Shown here: positions 9,601 to 64,000 of the stretch, one piece after another
Layout: every line of letters starts with the position of its first letter
How positions within the stretch are numbered: the stretch's first letter is position 1
The notes under the pieces: generated by a model
What the model saw: the letters and a program-made list of their open reading frames with translations, nothing else
Databases searched by the model: none
Told to the model about the DNA's origin: nothing
Assembly: GCF_964204645.1 (NCBI RefSeq)
Contig: NC_134031.1
Span: 8,742,001-8,806,000 of the forward strand
Length of the DNA: 64,000 nucleotides
Direction of reading: 5' to 3'
Source: Tubulanus polymorphus
Taxonomy: Eukaryota > Animalia > Nemertea
Program-made: the position numbers and the translations under genes

Positions 9601-12600
9601 ACATGATATACAGTATATCTGTTTATTTTACAGGATCTACTGAAGTCAGGGGCATTGAATCGAAGCTATTACAATCATTACTGCACCTGGAATGCGTTCG
9701 TAATAATCTAACTGTGATGAATAAAGCCTTGCTTGGTTGATATTGTCCACGTGAGATTCTCGTTCAGACAGCCAACACTCCTTCGTGTAGAGCAGGTACC
9801 CGAAAGCGCGACATTTGAACACAGTTTCCAACGCACAATACCTAGCACATCCTTCCAGCGTAAGCACATTATGGTGTTTCGAACGGGAGTGGTATCGTAC
9901 ATTACTGCTTGGCAACTTCCTTTGAAAATTCCGAAGATAATTTGCTGAAATAAGATAAACATTACCTGCACATAGACCTTTTACAATCAAACATGAGGGA
10001 TACCTTTCAAAAGATCACCTCATTATACATGTATAGATCATTCTCTAAAGCCTAGAAATAGAAGTCGAATTTGGGAATATTTCGTATTTTCTACCACCTA
10101 TATTCAACATCTATACAGGGACAAGGTTTTATGTAAAGAACTAGATCTATTCAAAATCAAGGAAATACATTATTTTCTTATCTCGGATTCGAACCTCGAA
10201 ATTACAAAATTGGGATCCATTCAGGCACTGAGCAATTTTCAGTTAATAAACAATATCTATTTGAATTTAGGCCTATATGGTTATGGAAACAAAAAAAATT
10301 CGAATTGAAAGGATGGAAATGAAATATGTTAAATCGTCTGGGATTCGAACTTTAATCTGACTCGTTCATACAGAAAAATAATTTGCGAAATATAGCTACA
10401 AAGCAGCGATAACGGGTTTTTGCCTAGCAGCATCATTATGCAAACCTTTGGAAATTATGATTAGAAATTTAGAAAATTGTGTATTGTAACCTGATATGAC
10501 TGGTACAACTACGTCAATGTATTTTATCACTGTAAAGCCGGGCGCACACCTTAAGACCCTACAAATTACTTTCGATATGATATAGTTCTGATATATTGCC
10601 CATGTCCTATAAATATTGTACCTATGTTACATCATTTCATTCCATGATTCATCTTCATTTCATCTCCTCATACATTTCATGTAGAGAGTTGAACCGTCGG
10701 TCAGTTTACCATAATCAGGTAAGGAAATCCGATCCCGACGGTGAGATTCTTTACTCCCATCCTTAAGATTACCCCTCCCTCGATATTTGCCATTCTTACC
10801 TACACTCGGACCAGTCGGTAATAAACGTTCCATATATTTGAATTCACGATTGGACGTTTCAATATTTTCTCCTAAGGAACTTGGACAGTTATTTCACGGA
10901 CATGAGATCACCTATAGCTGAGTTAATCACCTATATATCAGTTCGAACAAGCACTAATGACGCTATTCAATTAACGCCAATATGAAATTACGCCGCAGAT
11001 TCAAACCAAAAACCACGGTGGTTTCGAATATAATGGAGTGGAAACCAAGTTCTATTTCAATGGAATTCCAACCAAATGATGACAGGCACTGTCGGATGTG
11101 AAAATATTGAAATATTTTCATATCCGAAATAAAATCTGTGTTGTAAATGTAAATGTTATACTTAAACTCATCCAGATAATTACAAGTTCCTAGTTTCTCC
11201 AATGCTAGGAAACATGAAATATCCAGACACTTAATACATCAACAGTGGAACCTCGGAAATATTCAGACACTTAATACATAAACAGTGGAACCTCGTTGCA
11301 ACACCTTCACAGGACCAGAAAATATGTTCGTTATGACCGAAAGCCGGTTTTAACGAGGTTCCACTGTATTATACAAAATTTGATCCTCTAATTACGTTTG
11401 TTTGACGTTTCGGTAGAAAAAAAATTAGAAGTTGCTAAACCCATTACCGCTCTTGTCAAATGTATACAATCAAATAGCCCTGCATTAGTAGTGAGTAACA
11501 TATGACTAGACTTAAGAAATAAACAGATACGTAAACTATTTGGTTGCTTTAGACAGTGATAACCATTTTGACGTACATTACATCGTGGAATTGGCTAATA
11601 CACAATATTTTGAACATAACAGTATTCTCTTTTCCACGAAGTCATGTCACGGTGACACCTATCGGCTCGCTTAATACTTTGATAAGAATGCCCACAAACA
11701 GTGGCCTACTGGTTATAAGAGAAGCTGGTTTGGAAAGAGAAATGGTAAAAGCTGGGACCCCCCAAGTGACGTCACCAAACGCTCCAAAAAAACAAACCAA
11801 ATTAAGGGGTCCAGGAACACCATGCCCACTTGGGAAGTAGTTTAGAATACTCAACAATGTGACGGTTTCAATATTCAAAGCCCCTGGTGACCATATACTG
11901 AAACCAATGACCTTGAACTAACCACAATCATACAACATGTCATGAGCTACAATACACATTACAAAAATATGCCTCGGTGCCAATATAATAAGGAAATACA
12001 TAGTTATTCCGCTATTGAGTACCCCCTGGTGACCATATACAAAAACCAATGACCTTGAAACTCATCACTACACTTATAGAACATGTCATGAGCTACAATT
12101 TTGCAATTGATTGTGGTAACAAAATATGCCTAGGTAGCAACAAAACATGGAAATACTGATTTACTGCGCTATTCAACTTCCCCTGGTCACAATATACAAA
12201 ACCCAATGACATTGAAACTTACCACATTAACAGAACATGTCCTGGGCTAAAACTCTGCAACTGATTGTGGTTACAAAATGTGCATACCATAGGTACCAAT
12301 ATAAACAGACAAATTGTATTTGATTCAATATTAAACTCCCCTGGTGACGAGAAGTAACAAGAGCCCCAAGGGGCACTATGGCCAGCCTGTCGGCTTTTCA
12401 TAAAATGGCAAATGATGATGCATTCTGTGGGTTGAATTTGTCAAAATACACTCCCAGCTCAGAGTCAATACCTAATAATTTACACAATACAATCGTAGAA
12501 TACAAACGTAGCACAGTCAGCGACTGGATCTGGCAGGAACAAATACCTCAGATAAATCTTTTCCCTTGGTCTTGTTGATTTTAATGCGGAATAGAATTGA

Positions 12601-27175: not shown

Positions 27176-30100
27176 TTGATCTTAAAATAGGGATTGTCCC
27201 CATTATTTATTTAATTGGCTGGTAAATTTTGTTTGATTTTTCGATTGAGTGTCCCTTACAGACCCACCACACCTGCCGGGAGCGAAACAGGGGGTTTGAT
27301 TTTGAAATCGGAAATCGAAGTACAGATATAGATGTGTGATCGGCGGTCGAGTTAACAGAATATTTTCAAATCGAAGTACATAATTGGAAATTCGGTTCCG
27401 GTTCATCCAAACAATCTTCCATTCAGTCTGAACCGGCAAGCGACTGATTGGGATGAATTTTTCTGGCTGCCTAATTACTTTAATACTAATCTATTACTAT
27501 TTAATACAATGAGATTCTGGAAACAGCTATATTACAAGATCATTTTGTCCATTTTTATATTTTTTGGTCGTTTTCTACGTGTAAATAGTCCGATAGTTTA
27601 TTGTGGTTTTTTTTCTCGGGTAGATGTTGATGTAGAAGTCTTCTAAGTTGATGATCCCGCGTGTTGACTAGATAGGAAGAAAGCACATTTCGAAATGCAA
27701 ATTTTCCAGATGAGAGTATGGCCCTGGGGTATCCGAAGTGTAGTTGTATGAAACCGACGGTGCAGCTCCAATGAGGATGGGTTTCTCCGTCAAGGGGGAC
27801 GCAGTTGGTACTTCACATCTGGTGCTGAATTTGCCTAAAAGTATAAGTTTTACACTGGGAGCAGTTATGTGTTTCTAATATACAGTGAGTTAGGTCCGTG
27901 AATGTATCGCAATCAAACGGACAGTGCTATGCGTATTGATGGACCGTCAGTAAGAATGCGGCACAGACACGTGAATATTGAATACATGTTTGTACACTTA
28001 CATATATCAGGGAAGTGTGATGTCTCATCACACTTCCCTGCATATATACAGTCTTGATCGGGTTTTATTGACATTGTCACGATTAGGTTTTTGGTAGCTT
28101 TTAATGAGACTGATGTCAAGAGGCAACTTTCCAGTCACCATTGCGCGTAGATAGACTGAGCTTGCTATCCTAAGATCACAAACGGAGGCAGCGTTCCAGC
28201 TATCGTGGCATGAGCCTGAGTTTACAGTCAAAACATCAGAAACAGTAAACTAATAAACTAATGCGTATGTGATGATATAGAGCAAAAGTGGGCAGACAGT
28301 TCTATGCGTATTGATAGACCGTCATCCCTGTTCGATCTAAATCAGAACATACCTCAAGTGTCAAAGTCGGGATATGTAGGTGTAAGTAATAAAAAAGGCG
28401 TTGGGTTTTATTAATAGACTACGCTAATGGTGTCGATTGTGATTCTGTTTACTACGTTCAGTCCGTTTGCATCCAGGTGTATAAGTACATTGTTAAGAGT
28501 CCAAATATGAAGGTTTTGTTGAAGCATGATTTCTTGGTTTAGGCGATCTATTAGCGAGTTTTTGAAATACATTATAGTGTTGATGCGGCCAGAGCCTTGT
28601 TCTAAATTGTAGTGATTTTTGTACAAAATGGATTGTGCGAGAAACAAAAGGTAGTTCGCGAGTGTGCGTTTGAAGAAATCTCGTTCTATTGTTTTAGTAA
28701 TTCCTGTGTAGACGATGTCTTGAGTGATATTTATTGGTGTGTCTAGTATGCGTTGAATGATTGGTTGTATAGATGAATATAATTGCTGTGCTTCTGTGCA
28801 TGAGAATACTACATGGTCATTCGTTGCCGCGCGTCCACAAATTTTACAATTTGGATCAGTTTTTATTTTCCAAAGTACTAGTTTTGAAGCTGTTGCCAGA
28901 GTATTATGCAGTAATTTCCAATGAATATCACTAAATCGTCTATCAATATGATTATTATAAACTTCATTCCAAATTTCCGGCCAGTTCAGATCAGCATTTA
29001 ACATTTCAGTAATTTTGGTTTGCCCTATCGGTGTGATTTGATGGAGATTTTTTAATAATAGAATTCCATAAATTTGAGATGATAAAAGTTGTCCTATAGT
29101 ACACACTATATTACCAAATTGTACATAGATTTTTGGTAATTCATCGGGATCTAAATTTTGGTCAGACAGAATTAGTTTCCAATGTTGCGGTATCGTATTG
29201 TATATACATGTGTGTTTAAATTTATTTGTTAATGGAATTTCGTTAAATGCTTTGTAGTTGCCACGATTATCGAATAGATGTCGTAGATTGGTTATACCGT
29301 GATGTATGTATTCTGTGAAATTGGTTTTCTTGTTGAGCTTAATTTTTGGGTTGCCAAAAATAGGTTTTTGCAGAATTTCGGTAATGGTCTCAGTTGTAAC
29401 TAGATGTTGTTGAAAAACTGTCCATGATTTTAATAGATGTCTGTAGTAGTCATTTGTAATGACTTTTTTGGGTATTTCATTGTGAATGATGTTTGAAATA
29501 TTCCAGCCTGGGCCTAGATATTTTTGCAGATTGTAGTTGATAAGTGGTTTCCAGTGTGTTGGTTTTAGAGCGTGGTTTATCATCGTCTTAATTGCCTGTG
29601 TTTGTTGTCTGTATTTAATGTTGTGTAAGTCGAGACCTCCGTGTTCGATTTTTTTATGTATTATGTCTTTACTGACAAGGCGTTTTCCATTATCCCATAG
29701 GAAATTGATGATTTATGGTTCAAAGATTTTGATATATTTATCTGGAATTGGAAAAATCTCGGAAGTGTACCATAATATAGGTAGTATAAAAGAGTTTATG
29801 ACAACCTTTTTGCCATGTAAAGATAATTTAGTTTGGCGCCAAAGATTTATGATATTTTGAATTATTTTCGGATTCCAGTTTAAATCATCAGTATTTTCAT
29901 TGCCGAAATGAATTCCATAAATTTTCATGGATTTCTTCCAATTTAAGTCTAAAGGTTTATCGTTTCTAGCTTTCCAAGATCCTATCCACATACACTCAGT
30001 TTTATCTTTATTAATTTTTGCACCCGATGCTCTTTCAAACAGAGTTAAGGTTGTAAGGACTTGATTCAATGATTAGAACTAAGTCGGTTAGACATAATGT

Positions 30101-31577
30101 AGTGTCATCTGCAAATTGTTTGATTTTAATTTCTGTGTCATCTGGTAGTTTTACTCCTTTGATATTGTTGTTTTCGCGTATTTTAATTGCTAATGGTTCC
30201 GCTGCTATTATGTAGAGTATTGCGCTCATGGGACATCCCTGTCTTACGCCTCTTTCTAAGGTGAAGGGTTTAGTTAAGAAGCCGTTACTTTTAATTCTGG
30301 ATTTTGGATTTGAATAGCAAGTCTTGATGTACCGAATTAGATTTCCTCCAAAACCGAAAGATTCTAAAGTTTTAAACATATATGGCCAGTCAACACGATC
30401 AAAAGCTTTCATTTGATCGATGGTCACTAAAAATGCGTCTAAATTATCATTATTAACGTAATCAATTAAGTCTCTTATGATATGACCATTGTCTTGAATT
30501 CGACGTCCCTTTACGCTACATGTCTGGTCTGGGTGTATTATGTCTGTTAGACAGTTAATTAATCTGTTAGCGAGAACTTTTGTGAATATTTTGTAATCTG
30601 TACATAGTAATGAGATTGGTCTCCAATTTTTCAAGTCTGTTTTGTCATTTTTCTTATGAATTAATGAAATAATACCAGTTTGCATTGATTTAGAAAGTCT
30701 ATTTTCTTGTATACACGCATGTTCTAATTGTAGAAAGTCATTTTGGAGAGTATGCCAAAATATTCTATAAAATTCAATAGGTAGTCCGTCTATACCAGGG
30801 GATTTATTATTTTGGAAAGATTTGACTGAATTTGTTAATTCGTCGATTTCTATTTCGGAGTCATGCTGGAGTTTCTTTTGATTAGAAATTTTAGGTAGAT
30901 AACTCAGGAATAGATTTTGGGTTTCTAAATCCGTTTCTTCTTTTCTATATAAGTCTTTATAAAATTTTAGTTGAATTTTTTCAATGTCTTTTTGACCAGT
31001 TTTAATTTCACCCAGATTATTTTTGAGAGTCCTGATGTGATTCTTTTTAGCGCGCTGTTTTTCATAATTTGCAAAGAAGGTACTTGTTTTCTCCCCAAAT
31101 TCTCTCCACTCAATTTTAGATCTTATCATTGCACTTTTTGCTTTTTCAAAGTCGAAGTCACGAATACGCTTGGTAAGATATTCAATTTGATTTTGGTTAG
31201 TGTTTACTCCTAAATCAGAAAGTTTTTCGAGAATGAATAATTCAGATTCTAATGATTTCTTAAGATTGTTTTTAATTCTGCGGAGTTCTAATGCAAAATT
31301 TATAGATCTTTGTTTTATTTGAATTTTGCCCTCTTCCCACCATTCAATAATCGATTCATAAAACTGTTTGTGATTTTGCCATTGATTCCGAAATTCTGTT
31401 ATCATAGTGATGTAATTAGGGTTTTTAAGTAGTTCTTTGTTGAGATGCCAGTATCCCTTGCTACGTTTGACTTGAGAAGTGTTAATTGTCAATTCGACGA
31501 TCTTGTGATCGGAATGAATATAGTTGATATGTTTCACCTGTTCTATGTCTGGCTGTAAAGTGTCTGATACATAGAAT
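27176..31577 (-). mobile_element. 5'-truncated L1/Tx1-clade LINE with long 3' UTR and 17-bp TSD
   Basis: Flanked by CAAACTTGCGTAACGTT (27159-27175) and CAAATTTGCGTAACGTT (31578-31594). An AATAAA on the minus strand at 27206-27211 lies about 30 nt before the end. Confidence 0.85.
28411..31577 (-). pseudogene. LINE ORF2 (end of APE endonuclease, reverse transcriptase, C-terminal Cys/His motif), frameshifted
   Basis: SDH endonuclease end; KSPGIDGLPIEFY; NWRPISLLCTDYKI; IDQMKAFDRVDW; GVRQGCPMS; QFADDT; CKICG..TNDHVVFSC. Split into ORFs 30035-31537, 29713-30069 and 28411-29583. Confidence 0.92.
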
Positions 31578-49765: not shown

Positions 49766-50897
49766 TATTATTATTTTCTTCCACACTATTTTTACCAAAA
49801 GAAAATAGGCTTTGTTACCTTACCGCTGTTTCATATACAATCCATATAATATCGTTCAGCTCACTGAGATCTACAAATAGCCCGCGTGTTTTTTCACGAA
49901 TCATCGTTACAAAAGCGCTGTCGGGCCGTAAACATCGAAAATTATCCGTATGCTGGACTCACACTTGACATTCGGAGTAAGCGTTCGCTCTGGGGGAAAG
50001 GAGATCGTTCGCTGTGTCGCTTGAAGTGTTTATCGAGTTTTACGTGACCTTAAGGCTTTAGTATGGTGGCTGATAAGATAAAAGAACACGAATAAGCAAA
50101 TGAGGGCGACATGACGACAAAATGACAAAACTAAAATAACGCGAGAAAACAATGATTTTGATTTTGTCGCCCGCGACAATTCAATATTTTGGTTTTATCG
50201 CCCGCGACAATTCATTATTTTGGTTTTATCGCCCACGACAATTCACTACTTTGGTTTTATCGGCAGCGACAATTCATTATTCTGTTATTTCACAGAAAAC
50301 CCTATTGATATCCGCGTGATTATTATTAGGGTTTTCTGTTATTTCACAGAAAACCCTATTGATATCCGCGTGATTATTATTATTATTATTTTCTTCCACA
50401 CTATTTTTACCAAAAGAAAATAGGCTTTGTTACCTTACCGCTGTTTCATATACAATCCATATAATATCGTTCAGCTCACTGAGATCTACAAATAGCCCGC
50501 GTGTTTTTTCACGAATCATCGTTACAAAAGCGCTGTCGGGCCGTAAACATCGAAAATTATCCGTATGCTGGACTCACACTTGACATTCGGAGTAAGCGTT
50601 CGCTCTGGGGGAAAGGAGATCGTTCGCTGTGTCGCTTGAAGTGTTTATCGAGTTTTACGTGACCTTAAGGCTTTAGTATGGTGGCTGATAAGATAAAAGA
50701 ACACGAATAAGCAAATGAGGGCGACATGACGACAAAATGACAAAACTAAAATAACGCGAGAAAACAATGATTTTGATTTTGTCGCCCGCGACAATTCAAT
50801 ATTTTGGTTTTATCGCCCGCGACAATTCATTATTTTGGTTTTATCGCCCACGACAATTCACTACTTTGGTTTTATCGGCAGCGACAATTCATTATTT
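49664..50897 (+). repeat. Tandem duplication of about 617 bp
   Basis: 49664-50280 is repeated at 50281-50897; for example, ATGATTTTGATTTTGTCGCC occurs at both 50150 and 50767. Confidence 0.9.
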
Positions 50898-52610
50898 TGG
50901 TTTTGTCGCCCGCGACAATTCTTCTTTTTGGTTTTGTCGCCCGCGACAATTCAATATTTTGGTTTTATCGCCTGCGACAATTCAATATTTTGGTTTTATC
51001 GCCCGGAACAATTCATTACATTGGTTTTATCTCCAGCGAAAATTCATTATTTTGGTTTTGTCGCCCGCGACAATTCAATATTTTGGTTTTATCACCCGCG
51101 ACAATTCATTACTTTGGTTTTATCTCCAGCGACAATTCAATATTTTGGTTTTGTCGCCCGCGACAATTCAATATTTTGGTTTTATCTCCAGCGACAATTC
51201 ATTATTTTGGTTTTGTCGCCCGCGACAATTCTTCTTTTTGGTTTTGTCGCCCGCGACAGTTCTTTTTGGTTTTGTCGCCCGCGACAATTCATTATTTGGT
51301 TTTATATTTTGTTTGAGTCGCCCGCGACAATTTTTTTTGGTTTTGTCGCCCGCGACAATTCAATATTTTGGTTTTGTCGCCCGCGACAATTCATTATTTT
51401 GGTTTAATCGCCCGCGACAATTCAATATTTTGGTTTTATCGCCCGCGATAATTCATTATTTTGGTTTTATCGCCCGAGACAATTCATCATTTTGGTTTTA
51501 TCGCCCGCGACAATTCATTATTTTGGTTTTGTCGCCCGCGACAATTCACCATTTTGGTTTTGTCGCCTGGACAATTCACCATTTTGGTTTTGTCGCCCGC
51601 GACAATTCATTATTTTGGTTTTGTGGCCCCCACAATTCTTTTTTTGGTTTTTTCGCCCGCGACAATTCATTAGTTTGGTTTTGTCGCCCGCGACAATTCA
51701 ATATTTTGGTTTTATCACCCACGACAATTCATTACTTTGGTTTTATCTCCAGCGACAATTCATTATTTTGGTTTTGTCTCCCGCGACAATTCTTCTTTTG
51801 GTTTTGACGCCCACGACAATTCATTATTTTGGTTTTATATTTTATTTTTGTCGCCCGCGACAATTTTTTTTTTTGGTTTTGTCGCCCGCGACAATTCATT
51901 ATTTTGGTTTTATCGCCCGCGACAATTCAATATTTTGGTTTTATCGCCCGCGATAATTCATTATTTTGGTTTTATCGCCCGCGATAATTCATTATTTTGG
52001 TTTTATCGCCCGAGACAATTCATCATTTTGGTTTTATCGCCCGCGACAATTCATTATTTTGGTTTTGTCGCCCGCGACAATTCACCATTTTGGTTTTGTC
52101 GCCTGAACAATTCACCATTTTGGTTTTGTCGCCCGCGACAATTCATTATTTTGGTTTTGTGGCCCCCACAATTCTTTTTTTGGTTTTTTCGCCCGCGACA
52201 ATTCATTAGTTTGGTTTTGTCGCCCGCGACAATTCAATATTTTGGTTTTATCACCCACGACAATTCATTACTTTGGTTTTATCTCCAGCGACAATTCATT
52301 ATTTTGGTTTTGTCTCCCGCGACAATTCTTCTTTTGGTTTTGACGCCCTCGACAATTCATTATTTTGGTTTTATATTTTGTTTTTGTCGCCCGCGACAAT
52401 TTTTTTTTTTGGTTTTGTCCCCCGCGACAATTCATTATTTTGGTTTTATCGCCCGCGACAATTCAATATTTTGGTTTTATCGCCCGCGATAATTCATTAT
52501 TTTGGTTTCATTGCCCGCGACAATTCATTATTTTGGTTTTGTCGCACGAGACAATTCATTATTTTGGTTTTATCGCCCGCGACAATTCATTATTATGGTT
52601 TTGTCAGCCG
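50770..52610. repeat. 31-bp satellite TTTTGGTTTTRTCGCCCGCGACAATTCATTA with a 536-bp higher-order repeat
   Basis: The unit is directly visible. Near-identical ORFs start at 51461/51997 and 51737/52273 (offset 536). The array resumes at 54572-54660 after a HINE-family insertion. Confidence 0.95.
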
Positions 52611-52611
52611 A

Positions 52612-54571
52612 AGAAAATTTTGAAGACGCTTCGATCAATTACATTGATATTTCGTTTATATTTGAATCTACCAAAGGCCCATCAGCATAAGAAAATTGGG
52701 TCGATCTGACTCAAGATGGCCGTCCTATGACCTTTTTAGTGTCCAAAAATGTCAATTTTGGCCAGAATTCTAGGTCCTGTAGCTTCCTACTGGTTTGCCA
52801 TTTCTCATTGCAATTGCTCATGGATATTCTTTAGAGAGGGATGTTTTATACTTGGGACAGGTATTTTTGATCAGCCAATTATGACGCAATTGGCGGCCAT
52901 CTTGGTGTCATCAGTACTCATTCGTAGGTGGGAAAAAGTTTTTCCACAATTAATTGATACCTTAGCATATTGTGTTACTATATTCAATTGGAAAGTTGTA
53001 GCCCATAACGTGTTCTATGATTTTGGTGAGTTTCAAGGTCATTGGTTTTTGTATGTGGCCATCAGGGGGCGTTGAATAATACAATAACTTAGTATCGCTA
53101 TATTATATTTGTACCAAGGCATATTTTGTTACCATGATCAATGGCAAAGTTGTAGTTCGTGACATCGTCTATGATTGTGGTGAGTTTTTAAGGATATTAG
53201 TTATTCCATATAGTCACCAGGGGGCGTTGAATAGTAGAAAAGCTTAGTTTTTCCTTATTAGATTGGTACCTAGGCATATTTTGTTACTATGATCAATTGC
53301 AAAGTTGTCTTTCATGACATGTACTACGATTGTGGTGAGTTTTAAGGTCATTGGGTTTTGCATATGGTCACCAGGGGGCGTTGAATAGTAGAATAACTTA
53401 GTATTTCCATATTAAAGTTTTGAAGACGCTTCAAGGTAATGTCTTGATATTTGGTTTATACATGTATCTACCCTAGACACATCGTCAGCCCAAAAACTGG
53501 CCCTGTCAGATTCAAGATGGCCGACTGGCAGCCATTGTTGTTTGCCAAAATCAGCACTTTTTAAACATTTTCGAAGTTTTCGTGGAAAATTGTGAAGACG
53601 CTTTGATCAATTACCTTGATCTTTCGTTTATATTTGAATCTTCCAAAGGCCCATCAGCATAAGAAAATTGGGTCGATCTGACTCAAGATGGCCGTCCTAT
53701 GACCTTTTTAGTGCCCAAAAATGTCAATTTTGGCCAGAATTCTAGGTCCTGTAGCTTCCTACTGGTTTGCCATTTCTCATTGCAATTGCTGATGGATATT
53801 CTTTAGAGAGGGATGTTTCATACCTGGGACAGGTATTTTTGATCAGCCAATTATGACGCAATTGGCGGCCATCTTGGTGTCATCAGTACTCATTCGTAGG
53901 TGGGAAAAAGTTTTTCCACAATTAATTGATACCTTAGCATATTGTGTTACTATATTCAATTGGAAAGTTGTAGCCCATAACGTGTTCTATGATTTTGGTG
54001 AGTTTCAAGGTCATTGGTTTTTGTATGTGGCCATCAGGGGGCGTTGAATAATACAATAACTTAGTATCGCTATATTATATTTGTACCAAGGCATATTTTG
54101 TTGCCATGATCAATGGCAAAGTTGTAGTTCATGACATCGTCTATGATTGTGGTGAGTTTTTAAGGACATTAGTTACCAGGGGGCGTTGAATAGTAGAAAA
54201 ACTTAAGTTTTTCCTTATTAGATTGGTACCTAGGCATATTTTGTTACTATGATCAATTGCAAAGTTGTATTTCATGACATGTACTACGATTGCGGTGAGT
54301 TTTAAGGTCATTGGGTTTTGCATATGGTCACCAGGGGGCGTTGAATAGTAGAATAACTTAGTATTTCCATATTAAATTGGTAACGAGGCTTATTTTGTTA
54401 TCACAATCAATTACAAAATCATAGCTGCTCACATGTTCTATGATTGTGGTGGGTTTCAAGGTCATGGGATTTTGTATATGGTCACTAGAGGGCGTTATGT
54501 ATTGAAATTGTTAGATTGTTGAGCATTTGAAACCACTGCCCAAGTGAGCATGGTGTCCCTGGACCCCTAGT
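52612..54571 (+). repeat. Internally duplicated HINE-family block inserted in the satellite
   Basis: 52612-53415 is repeated at about 53584-54375. The block ends CCCAAGTGAGCATGGTGTCCCTGGACCCCTAG, after which the satellite continues. Confidence 0.75.
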
Positions 54572-54766: not shown

Positions 54767-55167
54767 GAAGACGACTTAGGATACTACCTTGCGTGACTCC
54801 ACTAGTTAGACCGTCTCATTCCAAGATGAGGCGTTCCGTTGATTTCGGTTACAAGTTTCCGTTCAGAGATAACTGCTGTGCCATTTGGGCGACCTATCAT
54901 TGATACTGTTTCCTAATAGCCTGTTCAGTAATGGCTGATGTTGAGCCTTATCAAATGCTTTGTTGAAATCCACCGTTGAACAGGATTCTAAGACTGTGCA
55001 GAAAACCCGTTATCGCTGCTTTGCAGCTATATTTATTATTATTATTTTCTTCCACACTATTTTTACCAAAAGAACATAGGCTTTGTTACCTTACCGCTGT
55101 TTCATATACAATCCATATAATATCGTTCAGCTCACTGAGATCTACAAATAGCCCGCGTGTTTTTTCA
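54767..55167. repeat. Mosaic of a CR1-like RT fragment (54767-55030) and a copy of 49770-49895 (55031-55167)
   Basis: GAAGACGACTTAGGATACTACCTTG matches 39217 onward; TTTTCTTCCACACTATTTTTACC...GCCCGCGTGTTTTTTC matches 49773 onward. Confidence 0.75.
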
Positions 55168-56551
55168 ATTTGGTTGCATTGGATTTTTAGATTCTTATAG
55201 ATTTCTAGCAAGTTCATTAGATAATTTATCAAAAAGTTTAGTTGATAATGATTTTATAATAACTCGATATTATCCAAATGACCAAGATTTTAAATTATTG
55301 AGATATAAAGGTGCAATTCCTTATTCATTTTATAAAACGCACAATGATTTTAATGTAACAGAATAATTAAAAGATCAATTTTATGATCAATTAAAAGAGG
55401 AGTATGTGAAAGACGAAGTGTTTAATAGATCATTAAATATTTGGAACCATTTTAAGATAAAAATTCATGGTGAATTAGTTGATTTATATTTAAAATCAGA
55501 TGTTATGATATTGGCTGACATATTTGAAAAATTTAGAGAAGTTAATTTGAATCATTTTAATGTTGATCCTTGTTATTGCTACTCTAGTCCTGGTTTAACC
55601 TGGCAATGTGGTTTAAAATATACAAATGTAGAATTAGATTTATTAAAAGAACCAGATATGGTTTTATTATTTGAAAAATCAATTAGAGGTGGAATTAGTG
55701 GTGTTATGGGAGATAGATATTTTAAAGCAAATGATGAATATAAATTATTATATATTGACGCCAATAATTTATATGGTTGGGCAATGATGCAACCTCAACC
55801 ATATAAAAATTTTATATTAACAGAAGTTGAAAATGATGATAAAACTAATTGGGAAAGCGCAATTATGAGTTTAGAAGATGAAGCACCAATTGGTTATTTC
55901 TTTGTAGTTGATTTAGAATATCCTGAAAATATAAAGTTTAAAACAAGAAACTTACCTTATTGCCCAGAACATTTAACTGTAGATGATAGTTATTTAAGTG
56001 AATACCAGAAGAAAATAAAACCGAAAGATCATGTTTTTACAGAAAAATTAATACTTACTCAAAATAATAAATACAATTATATTGTTCATTATAGAATGTT
56101 AAAATTTTATCTAAAACAAGGAATGAAATTAAAGAAAGTACATATATATATTGAATTTAATCAATCGAAGTGGTTAGAAAAATATATAGATTTTAATACT
56201 CAACAGAGAACCATATCAAAAACAGATTTTGAAAAAGATTTCTTCAAATTAATGAATAATAGTTTTTATGGTAAAACATGTGAAAATATTATAAATAGAA
56301 ATGATATTGAATTAGTAAATAATTCTGAAAGATTAAGACATTTACAATCAAGTCCTAGACATTTAGGAAATAAAAGATTTGAAGATTATCTAACAGCAGT
56401 TAAATTAAAAAGAACTTCAATGAAATTTAATAAACCAATATTTATAGGTTCAACTGTTTTAGAAATATCAAAATTATTAATGTATGATTTTTATTATAAT
56501 GTTTTACAACCACTTTTTGGGGAAAAGCATATTGAAATATTATATTTTGAT
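55168..56551 (+). pseudogene. Protein-primed family B DNA polymerase (N-extein; N- and C-termini missing)
   Basis: One frame through a TAA at 55364: FLDSYRFLASSLDNL, KGAIPY, ExoIII LYLKSDVMILADIFEKFR, SIRGG, motif A YIDANNLYGWAM, motif B KLMNNSFYGK, KPIFIG, then motif C broken at ILYFD. Confidence 0.93.
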
Positions 56552-57195
56552 TCTGTAACAGCTGACACCCCAATATTATTAAAATGTAATAATAAAATAT
56601 TGGTAAGAAGAATTTCAGAAATAATTCCAAAACAAAATGAATGTTATATTTTATATGGTGAAAAAGAATTAATACAAATAAATGGATTAATGGATGTTTG
56701 GACAAGAAATGGATGGAAAAAATTAAAGAATATTATTAGGCATAAAACAAATAAGAAAATCTATAGAGTTAGAACTAAATTAGGATTTGTAGATGTTACA
56801 GAAGATCATAGTTTAATTAAACGAAATGGTGATGAAATAAAACCAACTGATATAAAAATTGGAGATTAATTATTACATAAAAGATTTTTCCAAAGGATGA
56901 ATCATATGTCATTTGATGAAATTATTGATAGTATTTATAACATAGAACCCGAAACATTAGAAGAAAAAGAATATTTTATCAAAGGATTTTTCATGGGTGA
57001 TGGTTCAGCAGGTGTGTATAATTATGTTTGGGGTAATAAATATTGTTGGTATTTATGCAAGACTTAAAATTATTAGACAGAATTAAGAAATTCTGTGAAG
57101 AAGTTTATCCAAATAAAACATGGATGTTATGAAATCATCAGCAGTTTATAGAATACTTGTAAATAATCCTAAAGATTTTGCTATAAAATATATAT
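56552..57195 (+). mobile_element. Intein (Hint N-terminal domain plus LAGLIDADG homing endonuclease), degraded and C-terminally deleted
   Basis: Starts SVTADTPILLK immediately after YFD. Block B: VDVTEDHSL (TxxH at 56798-56809). Then IKIGD*LLH, and in-frame FIKGFFMGDGSAG (KGFFMGDGS at 56981-57007). After frameshifts: QDLKLLDRIKKFCEEVYP and DVMKSSAVYRIL. Confidence 0.88.
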
Positions 57196-58035
57196 ATTCT
57201 GGTGTATGATCTTCTATAGAAAATGTTTTAAAAATTTCATCTAGATAATTTAATTTTGGATCTATGAGAAAATTTCTAGTTTTATCTTCACTCCATAAAT
57301 TCTTTTGCCATCCACATTCATTACAAAATAACACAGTACCTTCTTGTCTTAAGGTTGCATAACTACATTATGGACATTTTCGTTTATAATTTATTGGTAA
57401 TAGATCTTCATTAAGCTCTTGGTATTTTCTTACGTTTTCTTTATGTTTTATTGTTCTATTATGTAGATTTGAATTACTTGTTGTAATAATCAATTTACAA
57501 TATTTACAATAATATGTTTTTCTTGTTAATTCATTATATTGTTTTTCTAACTTTTCAACTGTTTCTTTATTATCTGGTAACGTTTTCTCATATTTTATTT
57601 TTCTAATAAATTATTTTTTCTTTCATTGAATTCAGTTTCAAATTTATTAGAAATTTTATCTATATGTGCTTTACGAAATTGATGATTCTCCCAATCTTCT
57701 ATATTTTCAGGGCTATATTTTATTCGACAAGGCTCACAGAAATGATATTTTATATTATCCTTGTCATAGAATAAGAAAGGTCTTTTCCAAATAACTTCAG
57801 GTTCAACTTCAACAGAATTACTATTACTTTCGTTACTATCAACATTAACTGTTGCGCCATTAATTTTACACTTCTCTGAATGTTTTTTAACATAATTTCT
57901 TGAGAATAATTTATTACATTTTGGACAGTTTATTTTAGGGGGTTTATAATTTTCATCATGTTTTTTCATATGTCGAGCCATATTACTTTTTCTTAGAAGT
58001 TCACCACAAATTTCACATCGTATCTTCTCATCCAT
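57195..58035 (-). pseudogene. Viral multi-zinc-finger protein (four C2H2-like fingers plus a C4 ribbon)
   Basis: CEIC..H..H, CPKC..H..C and CEPC..H..H. After a frameshift near 57597: CKYC..H..H, then CP*C-x11-CNECG (stop at 57368-57370), continuing into ORF 57146-57334. Confidence 0.7.
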
Positions 58036-58104
58036 TTATTAAGGAAAAATTTTATTAAAATTAATTTTTAGTGATGAGCGGTAATTTTTTTTATGTTATA
58101 AATA

Positions 58105-58863
58105 ATGGTAGAATTAAAAGAATACAGAATATTTGTTGATTCTAGAAAACTTACAAATTATAAATCACATAATTTACTAGTACAATTAGATAGAGAATTT
58201 AAGAATTGTGTTGATTTAAAATTAGTTAATATAAGTTTATGTAACTCATTTTACAATATATCGGATAAAAGTCTAGAACATTTGATTTTTTCAATCTTTT
58301 ACAAAAAAATGAATGAATGGTATTTTATATATTTAAAACCAGGATTATATAATTTAGATACATTAGCACAAGAAATTAATTGAAAAGCTCGAGCTAAATT
58401 AGGAAGTGATTCCGGATTTAGTATTAGAATTTTAAAAAGTGATAGTTCTAATAAAATAAAGATTAGGTTAGATAATAACGAACAATTTAAATTTACAGTA
58501 AGAAAACCTTTAGCTAAACTGTTAGGAATTAACCCAAATATTGTTACAGCACACGCAGAAGGTAAATCAAACTTAATACCTTTTACACATTTTTATATTT
58601 ATTGCAATTTGATTGACCCAACAAAAACATTTGAAGCAACTAAAGATACAATTTGTAATTCTGGTTTATTAAATATTTTACCATTAAAAAATGTTAAACA
58701 ATTTGGAACTCAAATAAATTATAATTTAACTGAATGTGATTTCAAACCTTGTATTCCACGTTTCAATAATTTTAAATTAGAAATAAGAAATTACAATGGA
58801 TATTTAATTGATTTGAATAACTTTCCTGTAATTTTTGAATTAGTTATAAGATGTAGAGAGTAA
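58105..58863 (+). pseudogene. Minor capsid (penton, single jelly-roll) protein with one internal stop
   Basis: ORFs 58105 and 58609 are one frame across a TGA at 58381. Polinton penton-like motifs: NSFYNIS, PGLYN, LAKLLG, YIYCNLI, IRNYNGYLIDLNNFPVIFEL. Confidence 0.75.
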
Positions 58864-58878
58864 TTTTTCATTATATAA

Positions 58879-59235
58879 ATGAATATAACTGTTGGGCCGA
58901 GCATATGTTTTGGATTTGATTTTAAACGTGAGAAAGAAATGAAATTTAACATTAATGATGTAATTACACATATCAAAAATATTACATTTTCTAATGAAAC
59001 AACATTTGAGTATGAAACAACAATAGATAAAGAAACTTTTAATGTAGAAAAGATTACTAATTTAATTAGAGAATCTTTAATATTTTATGAATTAGATGAA
59101 GATTTTATCATCGATGATATTAAAAAAATAATAATTGAAATATATACAAATGAAACTAGTAATGAAATAAATGTTGAAATAATCATCACTAAGATAACTA
59201 AATATTTTGAAGATAGTAATTTTTTTGATAAATAA
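58879..59235 (+). CDS. Viral hypothetical protein, acidic, 118 aa
   Basis: Intact ORF preceded by the shared TAAATG motif. Confidence 0.65.
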   Translation: MNITVGPSICFGFDFKREKEMKFNINDVITHIKNITFSNETTFEYETTIDKETFNVEKITNLIRESLIFYELDEDFIIDDIKKIIIEIYTNETSNEINVEIIITKITKYFEDSNFFDK

Positions 59236-59457
59236 ATGAGTGATAATAAGTGGATAATAACTGGATTATATAATGGAGCATTACTATCAGTTGGAACTGT
59301 TGGTTATTCAATGGTATTAAAAAAAGTATTCAAAATGGGAAGTGTTAATGTTGATAGATTTGATATAAATGATATTTTAAAGTTAACATTAGCAGTTACT
59401 TTATCTAATTTAACTATTGATTATTTGGAAAAACAAAAATATATTCCTCCCATATAA
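59236..59457 (+). CDS. Small hydrophobic viral protein, 73 aa
   Basis: Intact ORF abutting the previous stop (TAA ATG); two moderately hydrophobic stretches. Confidence 0.7.
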   Translation: MSDNKWIITGLYNGALLSVGTVGYSMVLKKVFKMGSVNVDRFDINDILKLTLAVTLSNLTIDYLEKQKYIPPI

Positions 59458-59481
59458 ATGCATAATTTTTTTGCTAAATAA

Positions 59482-59904
59482 ATGGCTTCTGCAATTATAA
59501 CTATTATAGGATCGGCAATTGTTAACGCTTTTGCATTTGCTGGTGGTGGTTATTTATTTAAACATATTGATAAAAATGGATCATTAACAGAACAAAAAAG
59601 ACATAACTTAGCATTAGAGAAATATGATAAAGCTGCAGAAGAATATAGAGAAAAGAGACAAAACTATATGGATTACATCAATAAAGAATTAATTGATCAT
59701 AATATTTCACATAGAGATTTTCTATCAGTTGATGATGCAATGAGTTTATTTAACGCGGTAACCAATAAAGAAAAATTACATCTATACAAACCTAAATTAT
59801 CAGATTATTATACCCCAAGTAAAGAACAACAGAAATATGAAATAATATGGATTTTAGGCGGAACTGTTATTGTTATATTTGTCGCTTATAAATTTACTAA
59901 TTAG
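59482..59904 (+). CDS. Viral protein with hydrophobic N-terminus, helical middle and C-terminal TM, 140 aa
   Basis: MASAIITIIGSAIVNAFAFAGGGYLF..EQKRHNLALEKY..IIWILGGTVIVIFVAY; motif upstream. Confidence 0.75.
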   Translation: MASAIITIIGSAIVNAFAFAGGGYLFKHIDKNGSLTEQKRHNLALEKYDKAAEEYREKRQNYMDYINKELIDHNISHRDFLSVDDAMSLFNAVTNKEKLHLYKPKLSDYYTPSKEQQKYEIIWILGGTVIVIFVAYKFTN

Positions 59905-59923
59905 TAATTTTTTTTCTAAATAA

Positions 59924-60358
59924 ATGGATGATAAAGTTGATAATATTGATATTATTCCTCATGATATAAATAAAACTAAATTAAAAATATATTTAGAAAA
60001 ACAAATATTAGAATTTGAAAGTGACTTAAAGATAAAAAAGAAAAAATATCTAAAAAGTAAAATTATATTTTATTTGATTATAAGTGGTTCGGTTACAATT
60101 AGTTCTGTAATAACATTTCTAGCAATATTCAGTCCTTTAACACCTTTAGCTATATCAATTGGTGTATTAGGATTAAGTTCAAGTGTTTTAACCGGTATAA
60201 GTTCAAAATTAAATATAAAAAGTAATAAAGAAAAAATTAAAACTAATATAAAAGAAATTTATAAATTGAAGAATACACTAGATTATATAATAAGTTTAAA
60301 TGGTCATATAACAGTTGAAGAACAAGATAAATTATTAAAAGAATTAATAGATTATTAA
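59924..60358 (+). CDS. Viral two-TM protein flanked by coiled-coil-like segments, 144 aa
   Basis: IIFYLIISGSVTISSVITFLAIF and LAISIGVLGLSSSVLTGIS; motif upstream. Confidence 0.7.
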   Translation: MDDKVDNIDIIPHDINKTKLKIYLEKQILEFESDLKIKKKKYLKSKIIFYLIISGSVTISSVITFLAIFSPLTPLAISIGVLGLSSSVLTGISSKLNIKSNKEKIKTNIKEIYKLKNTLDYIISLNGHITVEEQDKLLKELIDY

Positions 60359-60374
60359 TTTTTTTATGATATAA

Positions 60375-61763
60375 ATGGTAGATAGTTTTCCAAAAGCTTT
60401 CCGATATAATAAATCAATTAAATATAATATTCCTGCAATAGATTTTAATAAAGATATTACATATAGAAATGAAGTTTTAGATTCATTAACTAATTTAGAA
60501 ATTTATGTTACTGAAACTAATAATTTTAATGCAAAGATGGAAAATATATTTCATGTATATTTAATTGATTTTAAAAAATTGAAAGATGAAAAACAATGGT
60601 TATTAAAATCTAATATGAAGTATTGGCAGAACCAATTAAATTTAGCTGTTTATTGTGCAACAACAGGTTGTGGAATTAGTTGGAATGATCATTTGAATAA
60701 TTCTAAATATAATTTAATTCAAAGTTTATTTAGATTTCATACATACTTTCAAATAAGATTAATATTAAATGAATTAGAGTGTCCTTAACCAGGGTCTAGG
60801 TATTTTAAAGAATTAGATAATAATATTAATTTGTCAAAGTTTTATAAAATTTGTAATGAATTTAATATAGATATAAATAATTCTGATTTTAGAACGAAAA
60901 TTGGAACAATAAGATCACTTCCTTGCCCTAAAAAGATTGCAGAATATTGTGCACTTCCCATACCATCTAATAGTTTTTATAATATCTATAATAATAAATT
61001 AGGTTATGGTAAAATAGAAACTAAGGATTTAGAAACATTAAATTTCAATAAATTACCGACATTTAATGATAATTTAAAACAAGAAAACAATAATGGTTGG
61101 GTTTATTTCATTTTAGAAAATAGTGAAGGTTTTACTAAATCAGGTATAGAAAGAATAAATCAATCTATTAGAACTTATTTGATATGTATTTTAGGTGCGC
61201 AAGTTGAAACAAGATCCCCAATAATTGGAAATTTAAATACATCATTTGATACACAGAAACCTTTCAAAGTATTATTTGAAGATTCAATTCATAATGATAA
61301 AAATAGATCGATTCCGGAAAACATTGTAAGATATCAAAATTATTTAGATAAATCTCATGTAAGACTAAATTATTGCATAGGCCCTAATCTATTAATTATT
61401 TCTAATGATTTAGTATTAAAGATGGGAAACATAATTGGTTACAATAATCTAATTAAAACTGCAACAATAAATAATTCATTTGGATTGAATGATATAAATA
61501 AAAAGATAATTACTGCTCCAAAATTAATGGAAGGTGAAAAAAATAAAAAACATATTCAATCAACTGAAACTAAAACTAATAATATTAAATTAAATAATGA
61601 TTCTAAAATAAAAGATTACAATACATCAGAAAATATTAAAACCGATAAAATTCAACATGAAATAATTAAACTAAATGATGATAATAAATCCCATGAAAAT
61701 ACTAAATTAGCTTTAACTTGTATAGGAATTGTTATAAGAGGATTATTATATTTTAAATTTTAA
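60375..61763 (+). pseudogene. Viral protein of about 460 aa with C-terminal TM and one internal stop
   Basis: ORFs 60375 and 60831 are one frame across a TAA at 60786 (ECP*PG). Contains WQNQLNLAVYCATTGCGIS and ends LALTCIGIVIRGLLYF. Confidence 0.75.
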
Positions 61764-61779
61764 TTTTTTTATTATATAA

Positions 61780-63204
61780 ATGGATGTAGAAGGTGGAGAA
61801 GATATTGGAATGGATCCTTTTGATGAACCTGGTATAAGTGATGAACAACCACCTGATTTTGATGAAACAAGTTTTAATGACGGTAATGAGCCAGGATATA
61901 ATAATAATTTAAATATGCCTGATTATATTAAAAATGCAGAATCACAATTAAATCCTGAAAATTTAAACAGTTTAGTAAAACAAGATTTAGATAATTTAAA
62001 CAAAATACCCAAATTAGAACGTATAATTGAAAATTCTAAACTTAACATAAATGATGAAGACGTTGGTCTTTAAGCATATCAATTAAAATTTTTAGATAAT
62101 GGTAAATGTTATTATCGTTTGAAAGGTGATTATTATATTGATATCACTTCTAAAAATAATAAAAAAATTATAGCGGAATCAACTTTGAAAAGTTTAAAAC
62201 CAGATAAAATTAAAATAATAAGTAATAGTAATGAAATAACTGATGTTACACAAAAAGAAATAGATGATAATATAGACGTATTTAAACAAAGAATTAATGA
62301 ATTATTTGAAACAATCAAAAAGAAATCAGAAACAGAAACAACTTCTGAACAGAATATAACTTCCAAAAATAGTAAACTTAAATCAAATAAAGTTCCAATT
62401 GAAAAACTTTTACCGAATGGATTAATTGATGCAACAGATCAACAATTAGAAGATTTAAATATATTTTCTGATGAAGCAATTAGAGAAATTATTAGTATAA
62501 GAAATGCATCCGATAAAATTGCGCATGAAAAAGAAATAAGAGATTTTAAAATTAGATTTTTAGAAAAAGAATTAACTGATAAAAATAAAGAAATAGAACA
62601 ACTAAAGTCTGATTTAGATCATCAAGTAATTGATGAAATAGAGTATAGGCAAAAAGAATAACGATTAGAAAAAGAAATTAATAATTTAAAAGATAATTTA
62701 GAAGTACAGAAAGAAGAAATTAAATTATTATTAAAATCATATGATTATGATATTAATAGATTAAAAGTTATTTTTAAAGATTTATTGATAAAACCAAATT
62801 CTGAAATATCATTGAAAGATAGAATAAAATTATTATTTAAGTTAGAAGGAATAACAATTTTTTCAATTCTAACAGCTGTAACTATGATATTTACAACAAT
62901 TGGTTTAGCAATATCAAATGCTTTGAAATCTACTCCTACTCCCAATAAACCAGATAAACCCCCAGATAATAATTCTGTACAAGATAAAGTTAAAGATGGT
63001 TTAAAGAAATTAGCAAAATATTTATGGGAACTATCTAAAAAATCTGCTGCAGCTTTACCAGGAATTATTGCATCAATTGTTGGTTTTATATTGAAATCTG
63101 CAGGTAATATTCTTAACTTTGCTGCTGAACATATTATTTTATTTTTAATTACAGTTGTAAGTGCTATTATTTTTGGGCTAGTGAATATGATTAAAAATAA
63201 ATAA
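61780..63204 (+). pseudogene. Viral protein of about 470 aa (acidic N-terminus, coiled coil, hydrophobic C-terminal helices) with two internal stops
   Basis: ORFs 61780, 62119 and 62785 are one frame across TAA at 62071 and 62659. C-terminus: GITIFSILTAVTMIFTTIGLAI..LPGIIASIVGFIL..IILFLITVVSAIIFGLV. Confidence 0.75.
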
Positions 63205-63224
63205 TCAATTTTTTTGTTAAATAA

Positions 63225-64000
63225 ATGAGTGGGAGTTAGATAAGTCCTTCTAAGATTTCTAGAATATCTAATGCTATTAAAGCAGAAAGATCACATCATA
63301 TAATTACACATAATCCTTCAAATATTAATCCCGATGAAACTTTATATGTTAGAATTCCTAGATTAACACAAAATACTTTTTATGTTCCAAATAGTATTTA
63401 TTTATCAGCTGATATAAAAGTAACTGGCCATGATAATAATTATGTTGTTGATAATGTTGGAAGGTATTTGATTAAAAAATTAACTATAAAGATTGGTCCA
63501 GAAACAGTTTTCTCATTAGATGATTATAATTTATTTATGCATTATAAAGATTTATGGTTAACTAAAGAAAATAGAAATAATATGATATTTCAAGGCATCC
63601 AATCAGGAAACCATAATAAATTAAGATCAGGAGCTAATGACGCAATAGTAACTCGTGCCACAGATAATTTGATTAAAAAGATTTATGGAAGCAAATATAA
63701 AATCCCATTAGACTTTGAATTGATAAATAACAATGCACCTTTATATAAATACGCAATTCAAGAAGATATTATATTTGAGATAACATTTGCTCCTGTTAAT
63801 GAAATTGTATTATCTAGCGTTGTTAAAGATATGGGTTATAAATTATCGAATATATGTTTAGAATATAACACAGTAACTAATGAAAATATTGCAAGTATAA
63901 TTCAAACTCAATACAATCAAGGATTTTCATTATTATATGATTATATTGATAAATTTAAAACTGTAACTATTAATGCAAATGATGAAATAATAAATGAGAA
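63225..64000 (+). pseudogene. Major capsid protein (double jelly-roll type) with a stop at codon 5; continues past the window; absent from the ORF track
   Basis: ATG at 63225 and TAG at 63237, then open to the window end: IITHNPSNINPDETLYVRIP..VVDNVGRYLIKKLTIKIG..YKDLW..FQGI..YKIPLDFEL..YKLSNICLEY. This resembles, from memory, MCPs of invertebrate Polinton-like elements. Confidence 0.75.

Follow-up and report, generated by a model that had tools for sequence, protein, structure and literature searches.

Promoters that match those of a helper virus are described for mavirus, for endogenous mavirus-like elements (EMALEs) and for Gezel-14T (10.1101/2025.10.09.676808, 10.1101/2022.07.28.501842), and for Halocafeteria a helper that has not been seen was inferred from a promoter match (10.64898/2026.07.28.741278). 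The promoter motif of Cafeteria roenbergensis virus is TCTA (PMC5294985). Among animal-associated polinton-like viruses (PLVs), one lineage linked to entomopoxviruses carries a capsid that falls beyond the Maverick groups, close to Polinton-3_NV and the PgVV group (PMC11296320); related work includes PMC8906413 and PMC4542343. Here we describe 64,000 nucleotides of the nemertean Tubulanus polymorphus (GCF_964204645.1, contig NC_134031.1, positions 8,742,001 to 8,806,000 of the forward strand; hereafter the window), the right end of which holds a decayed, left-truncated, multicopy endogenous PLV whose visible gene starts share one compact, promoter-like signal.

All nine visible gene starts in this element carry a run of 5–8 T, a spacer of 5–7 nt and the word TAAAT. 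Eight read exactly TAAATG; at the ninth (58105) the initiator lies 3 nt farther from the start codon, giving TAAAT-AATG. The ninth and tenth nucleotides before TAAAT are both T at every one of the nine. The promoter-like elements are as follows:

58033..58053, minus strand: element 1 (T5, 6-nt spacer, TAAATG; divergent from element 2)
58082..58107, plus strand: element 2 (T8, 6-nt spacer, TAAAT-AATG)
58861..58881, plus strand: element 3
59217..59238, plus strand: element 4 (within the coding end of the upstream gene)
59463..59484, plus strand: element 5
59905..59926, plus strand: element 6
60356..60377, plus strand: element 7
61761..61782, plus strand: element 8
63206..63227, plus strand: element 9

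The composite motif occurs at 10 sites between 55140 and 64000, against 0.55 ± 0.76 (maximum 4) in 500 dinucleotide shuffles; these are the nine starts and one internal out-of-frame site at 62106, and the 55 kb of host flank contain two further sites. As a caveat, the word TAAATG alone shows no enrichment in the element (22 occurrences vs. 19.5 ± 4.2 in shuffles). The signal is one of position, TAAATG standing at 8/9 starts and at 14/315 other ATGs of the element. Tandem genes are separated by gaps of 0–24 nt in all seven cases, and the divergent pair lies 69 nt apart; at several tandem starts the TAA ahead of the T-run is the stop codon of the upstream gene. An earlier, sequence-only reading of this DNA had claimed late-promoter architecture at nine starts and very short intergenic gaps, and had named an AT-matched shuffled background as the check; the architecture, the gaps and the enrichment of the composite motif are all borne out. 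We also note that T-run length varies among genomic copies (window positions 58085, 58104, and 58863) and that in some copies the DNA upstream of the 58105 gene is of a different sequence.

A scan with the capsid yielded 28 metagenome loci (L001–L028), all partial and the longest 11.5 kb; capsid scans of viral contigs found no relative. Over the 28 loci, 63/139 first ATGs read TAAATG, distributed as 57/67 starts in the 15 loci closest by capsid (L001–L015) and 6/72 in the others, where five of the six fall in L023 and L027. The grouped counts leave out near-duplicate or short loci (L003, L013, L015, L020, and L026). L023 and L027 were assigned to group A on the strength of their motif, although by capsid they branch with group B; the grouping is therefore after the fact. 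In group A, TAAATG occupies 55/64 starts compared with 77/2196 other ATGs. Upstream of it, T at −12, the ninth nucleotide before TAAAT, forms a sharp peak (49/55), A is found at −18 in 76%, and G follows at +4 in 41/55. Loci at 36–44% GC retain the signal (14/16 starts vs. 12/697 other ATGs), and T at −12 is kept in 13/13 divergent and 31/37 tandem starts. In six loci, head-to-head ATGs lie 19–30 nt apart, each with its own TAAATG. Because it is kept in relatives, at 36–44% GC and in head-to-head pairs, the signal behaves as a compact DNA promoter.

In such pairs the bidirectional promoters overlap within 19–30 nt, and a single A-run/T-run core serves both strands:

L009:2017-2046, L010:788-819, L011:370-399, L013:213-238 and L002:5548-5568: bidirectional promoter sites

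Several simpler accounts of the signal were rejected. An artefact of AT composition is largely refuted by the shuffle test and by the retention at 36–44% GC, stop-start coupling by the fact that TAA is the upstream stop at only 1/37 tandem starts of the relatives, and a pure terminator role by the T kept at every divergent start, where no gene ends. No AG precedes the ATG, as a spliced-leader acceptor would have, and a TATA box for RNA polymerase II (Pol II) would be too near the ATG. A Kozak context is likewise rejected: the base at −3 is T, a poor base at that position in animals, which argues against a translation signal and fits transcription starting inside the A-run. The sequence-only reading had also pointed to the early termination signal TTTTTNT. 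That word is indeed present inside 7/9 T-runs of the window; a terminator is not needed to explain them, given the T at 13/13 divergent starts.

One review describes the vaccinia late promoter as TAAAT lying over the start codon, in most cases with G as the next base, and with the tenth nucleotide upstream conserved as T (PMC11980589); a second account gives a T-containing core 5–7 bp from TAAAT (PMC5294985). The window starts fit both published descriptions: TAAAT(G/A) overlies the start codon, exactly in eight cases and shifted by 3 nt in one, and all nine have the T-rich core 5–7 bp upstream and T at the tenth nucleotide. In a motif scan and an MSV199-domain scan we recognized no real poxvirus locus that could serve as a positive control; the two scans returned phages, large-virus bins, and iridovirus-like records. 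Among the matches listed in the motif scan of viral contigs, TAAATG stood at 83/977 starts in 79 loci, and the top long locus among them, L029, carries it at 7/14 starts. The gene content of L029 is iridovirus-like (MSV199, DUF3627, Erv1, and matrixin).

The more distant relatives use another signal. TAAATG is found at only 1/51 starts in group B. In five of its nine loci (L016, L018, L019, L021, and L025, chosen by eye), TATA lies no more than 14 nt from the ATG at 20/29 starts compared with 113/913 other ATGs; for L019, at 49% GC, the counts are 8/16 and 18/385. The layout of this second dialect is a T-run (often present), ∼10 nt, TATA, and 0–10 nt to the ATG. Since the late promoter of asfarviruses is given as TATTT plus TATATA (PMC5294985, PMC11788076), the TATA-type signal appears to resemble it, a match made by eye and unscored. 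One locus of this dialect also holds a weak match to a VLTF3-like late transcription factor (L019:6522-7049, E = 7e-4, below cut-off).

We looked for transcription genes among 144 open reading frames (ORFs) of at least 100 amino acids from the 28 partial loci, grouped into 40 clusters of which one representative each was scanned. None of the 40 representatives matches an RNA polymerase family, and a catalytic motif of the DxDGD type is absent from all 144 ORFs and from the six frames of the window. An independent hint comes from the intein in the DNA polymerase of the element. Among the best 120 of 156 intein homologs, the closest lie in other protein-primed family B DNA polymerases (pPolBs; 59%–68% identity) and nearly all others in RNA-primed family B polymerases or topoisomerase II of large-virus type. 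In a tree, three pPolB inteins form a group with that of the window (support 0.976). The TAAATG motif is absent in L169 and L170, the loci of a close intein-bearing family B polymerase. For an intein to home, its donor and recipient must share a cell, which would fit co-infection.

Taken together, each element of ∼20 nt is likely a late promoter, and on balance we think it probable that it is read by the RNA polymerase of a large cytoplasmic DNA virus that co-infects the cell and whose late transcription is of poxvirus type. Each gene would then be transcribed singly, as a monocistronic message starting within TAAAT, by the late machinery of the helper. Replication would take place in or beside the helper factory with the polymerase and capsid of the element itself, and integration would use its rve integrase. 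The provirus might remain quiet as long as no helper has entered the cell, as in mavirus; a large-virus polymerase present in the same cell may have been the source of the intein; and the lineages with the TATA signal could follow another helper, one that is asfarvirus-like. Any antiviral role is speculative, and the window copy is broken. The wider proposition, that PLV proviruses in invertebrate germlines are widespread endogenous virophages whose promoters record the parasitized large virus (poxvirus-late or asfarvirus-late dialect), we put forward tentatively, as an idea that may well prove wrong.

The element itself begins where GC falls from ∼39% to 21%–27%, at about 55164. Its left end is cut off against a high-copy host repeat, with loose read ends at 55163/55167. 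Its features are:

55164..64000, unstranded: decayed PLV fragment, 21%–27% GC, running past the right end of the window (from GC step, read ends, depth, and colinearity with L001)
55164..56551, plus strand: protein-primed family B DNA polymerase, 5′-truncated, in-frame stop at 55364 (family B motifs in the translation)
56552..57190, plus strand: intein located at the polymerase motif-C site and holding a broken LAGLIDADG-like remnant, which has stops at 56867 and 57065; right end approximate
57149..58035, minus strand: C2H2 zinc-finger gene, probably a single gene interrupted near 57597 and 57370 (homolog at L001:11054)
58105..58863, plus strand: conserved gene, candidate minor capsid protein, in-frame stop at 58381 (weak DUF5901 match)
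58879..59235, plus strand: 118-aa ORF without assigned function, its final codons holding promoter-like element 4
59236..59457, plus strand: 73-aa conserved hydrophobic protein
59482..59904, plus strand: 140-aa conserved protein, both ends hydrophobic
59924..60358, plus strand: 144-aa SLATT-like two-helix membrane protein (under the family cut-off)
60375..61763, plus strand: family-conserved gene of ∼440–460 aa without known domain, in-frame stop at 60786
61780..63204, plus strand: conserved coiled-coil protein, its C-terminal part with hydrophobic segments, interrupted by stops at 62071 and 62659
63225..64000, plus strand: gene for the double jelly-roll major capsid protein, with a stop at 63237 and truncated where the window ends

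Besides the polymerase and its intein, five other genes are broken by stops, and the remainder of the polymerase beyond the intein is not in the window. The window's own polymerase segment has no match to PF03175, a family matched by two relatives (P0057 and P0060) with the same intein. For the capsid we modeled a relative 78% identical to the window protein (P0001); with an alignment the model reached a pLDDT of 87 (single-sequence model, 34), and in a fold search it is matched best by double jelly-roll capsids of viruses with solved structures, at E values from about 1e-15 to 1e-19. Virophage capsids rank below those of iridoviruses and chloroviruses in that search, the mavirus major capsid protein coming at rank 49–50 with a TM score of 0.51. 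Three further genes are seen in L001, a colinear relative: those for an rve integrase, a deoxynucleoside kinase, and an A32 ATPase. The A32-like packaging ATPase (PF04665) is in colinear relatives, outside the window. The pPolB with its intein, the double jelly-roll capsid, and the integrase, ATPase, and kinase of L001 make the window element a decayed PLV (Polisuviricotina), with a replicase of its own (a remnant in the window) and an integrase seen in its relatives. The gene at 58105 is the candidate for a single jelly-roll minor capsid protein. Among the 40 cluster representatives from the partial loci there is neither an adenovirus-type cysteine protease, which most group 1 members of the Maverick/Polinton groups 1–2 (Polintoviricetes) have, nor a virophage maturation protease; the virophage (Virophaviricetes) combination of a virophage-type capsid with that protease is not found here. 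The element probably belongs among the animal PLV and polinton elements outside the main Maverick groups.

Three of the genes deserve mention in their own right. The family at 60375–61763 (L001:2996-4321) has 1321 homologs, partly on contigs of up to 1.47 Mb, and would be a useful marker for this virus family; its 442-aa conserved protein has no match in PDB, NCBIfam, or PHROG. The SLATT-like domain at 59924–60358 is of a type common in antiviral systems, and SLATT has been noted in polisuviruses (10.64898/2026.10.13.758929). The deoxynucleoside kinase occurs in two relatives of the TAAATG dialect (L001:10343-10981 and L006:2898-3380).

Read depth, from a whole-genome shotgun run of another study with the same species label, is 74–1022 over 28 element bins (median 327) and has a host median of 6.8 over 15 low bins, hand-picked as single-copy; two mappings were made, at likeness cut-offs of 90 and 95. 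This corresponds to ∼48 copies of the element (range 11–150). The flank is that of an animal genome, with domains named from translations:

1646-2098, 9646-10014, 28411-31576, 50770-52605, 52937-54496: CUB-like and PAN-like exons, reverse transcriptase of a long interspersed nuclear element, and satellite/repeat in the host flank

Among the flank repeats are 58 copies of a 31-bp satellite as well as a repeat of 154 bp.

Several observations weigh against a poxvirus-type helper, or against a helper at all. The T peak of the relatives is at the ninth nucleotide before TAAAT, not at the published tenth, which is T in 40/55, and the poxvirus fit rests on published descriptions of vaccinia promoters. 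Iridovirus-like genomes have TAAATG at 61/141, 44/104, and 107/365 starts (∼30%–43%), so the initiator is not specific to poxviruses, and some of their starts are nearly the same as those of the window. Helper dependence is judged only from promoter shape, the intein, and the absence of a polymerase in the parts seen, which are partial elements of up to 11.5 kb plus the 8.8 kb of the window; the tree assigns the intein neither a sister group nor a donor. Autonomous spread would likewise be compatible with the ∼50 copies in the germline. Core genes of coral polintoviruses are expressed in RNA-seq data, with no helper mentioned in the parts of that paper drawn on here (PMC11131425), which speaks against strict helper dependence. 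The sequence-only claim of transcription by a pox-like or other large-DNA-virus polymerase thus stands in part: the conserved motif of fixed spacing, the vaccinia fit, and the lack of an RNA polymerase in relatives agree with it, and its attribution to poxviruses is loosened by the shared TAAATG.

An autonomous nuclear element, transcribed by host Pol II (perhaps with an element-encoded factor) from the signal or from upstream inside neighboring genes, is the alternative that best survives, though we hold it unlikely. The coral expression data and the ∼50 integrated copies would suit it, as would the existence of PLVs that are autonomous lytic viruses, the several conserved genes without known function, and the weak VLTF3-like match in one distant relative. 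Pol II starts ∼25–30 nt downstream from a TATA-like word, however, so a word placed on the ATG would put the start inside the ORF. The ATGs of divergent genes lie only 19–30 nt apart, and, except where the mRNA begins within the A-run, T at −3 would make a poor Kozak context. Moreover, there are two lineage-specific signals, each resembling a large-virus late promoter.

The same helper-dependent mechanism could instead be served by an invertebrate iridovirus or another virus of Pimascovirales type, which we consider a rather unlikely variant. It would draw on the TAAATG starts of iridovirus-like genomes, some near-identical to those of the window, and an iridovirus activation of vertebrate Mavericks has been hypothesized (PMC8097293). 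Several of the closest large-virus inteins also sit in family B polymerases with a motif B like that of Pimascovirales, and relatives carry the deoxynucleoside kinase, an iridovirus core gene. The start signals themselves differ. AATAAA is found no more than 15 nt from most start codons in L029, L155, L156, and related iridovirus-like loci, at variable distance from the ATG (116/141 and 89/104 starts), with a near-invariant AA at −5/−4; the relatives of the window element have AATAAA at 31/64 starts and T at −5 in 44%. T at −12 is present in 49/105 iridovirus-like starts against 49/55 in group A (P = 6.5e-8, Fisher's exact test, only a guide because the starts are non-independent). The genome-wide AATAAA start signal is not described in the relevant section of PMC5294985. 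The helper family is open; judged from these signals, the fixed upstream T favors a pox-like helper, and “pox” is the best match, not a diagnostic one.

That complete elements encode their own RNA polymerase in a part outside the loci examined, as yeast cytoplasmic linear plasmids do, would be permitted by fragments of up to 11.5 kb and a window portion of 8.8 kb but is very improbable, since the window and relatives already show genes for replication, integration, packaging, and capsid and the searches of 40 representatives and 144 ORFs returned no polymerase family and no catalytic motif. Least credible, and largely refuted, is a pattern born of AT-rich composition, stop-start coupling, or a terminator ahead of each ATG: The 21%–27% GC, the unenriched TAAATG, the frequent TAA stop, and TTTTTNT in 7/9 T-runs invite it, but it is contradicted by the shuffle test, by retention at 36–44% GC and in divergent starts, and by viral loci that, even when selected by motif, have TAAATG at only 83/977 starts among the matches listed.

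Whether animal polintons and PLVs are autonomous or depend on helpers is an open question, and for vertebrate Mavericks a helper is hypothesis only (PMC8097293). A fixed promoter signature, repeated gene by gene, offers a direct sequence handle on it: The signature predicts where transcripts start and suggests which type of helper polymerase to seek in host sequencing data. The presence of two promoter dialects in a single capsid family would show helper switching and flag unsampled large viruses of invertebrates. If these elements are endogenous virophages, that would point toward undiscovered pox-like viruses of aquatic invertebrates and, possibly, an inherited antiviral system in animals. 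In the literature searched (subscription journals and supplements outside its scope), no paper described promoters of pox type in a PLV endogenous to an animal. The word “promoter” has 0 occurrences in the main text of the entomopoxvirus-associated PLV paper (PMC11296320), and none in PMC11131425 or in the PLV framework preprint (10.64898/2026.06.19.733378), where there is no promoter analysis or helper link.

Comparison with known systems places the element as follows. Like the mavirus and EMALEs of Cafeteria, it is an integrated small double-stranded DNA virus; their promoters match the late motif of the helper, with a motif that differs by clade. The gene content of those systems, pPolB plus rve integrase, is also that of our element; they differ in their protist host and virophage-type capsid, and reactivation is shown there and inferred here. 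The entomopoxvirus-associated PLVs (Barth et al. 2024, PMC11296320) are likewise animal PLVs and are tied to a poxvirus; unlike our element they come from insect occlusion bodies, and the two are likened by description only. Gezel-14T (PgVV) and the Tetraselmis PLVs depend on a giant virus or are reactivated by one, and Gezel shares the promoter of its helper, but their hosts are algae and the Gezel motif is an early one, AAAATTGA, not a late TAAAT. Coral, hydrozoan, and bivalve PLV and polinton elements outside the main Maverick groups resemble ours in being endogenous, multicopy, and resident in invertebrate genomes. With the vaccinia late promoter, finally, the element shares TAAAT(G) over the start codon and a T-rich core 5–7 bp upstream; the T peak of the relatives is one base closer, and the putative promoter stands in a genome that is not a poxvirus. 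The signal is real and well conserved, and, with helper identity open, we regard the element as a known kind of system, a small endogenous DNA virus that probably depends on a helper, here in a setting that is new.

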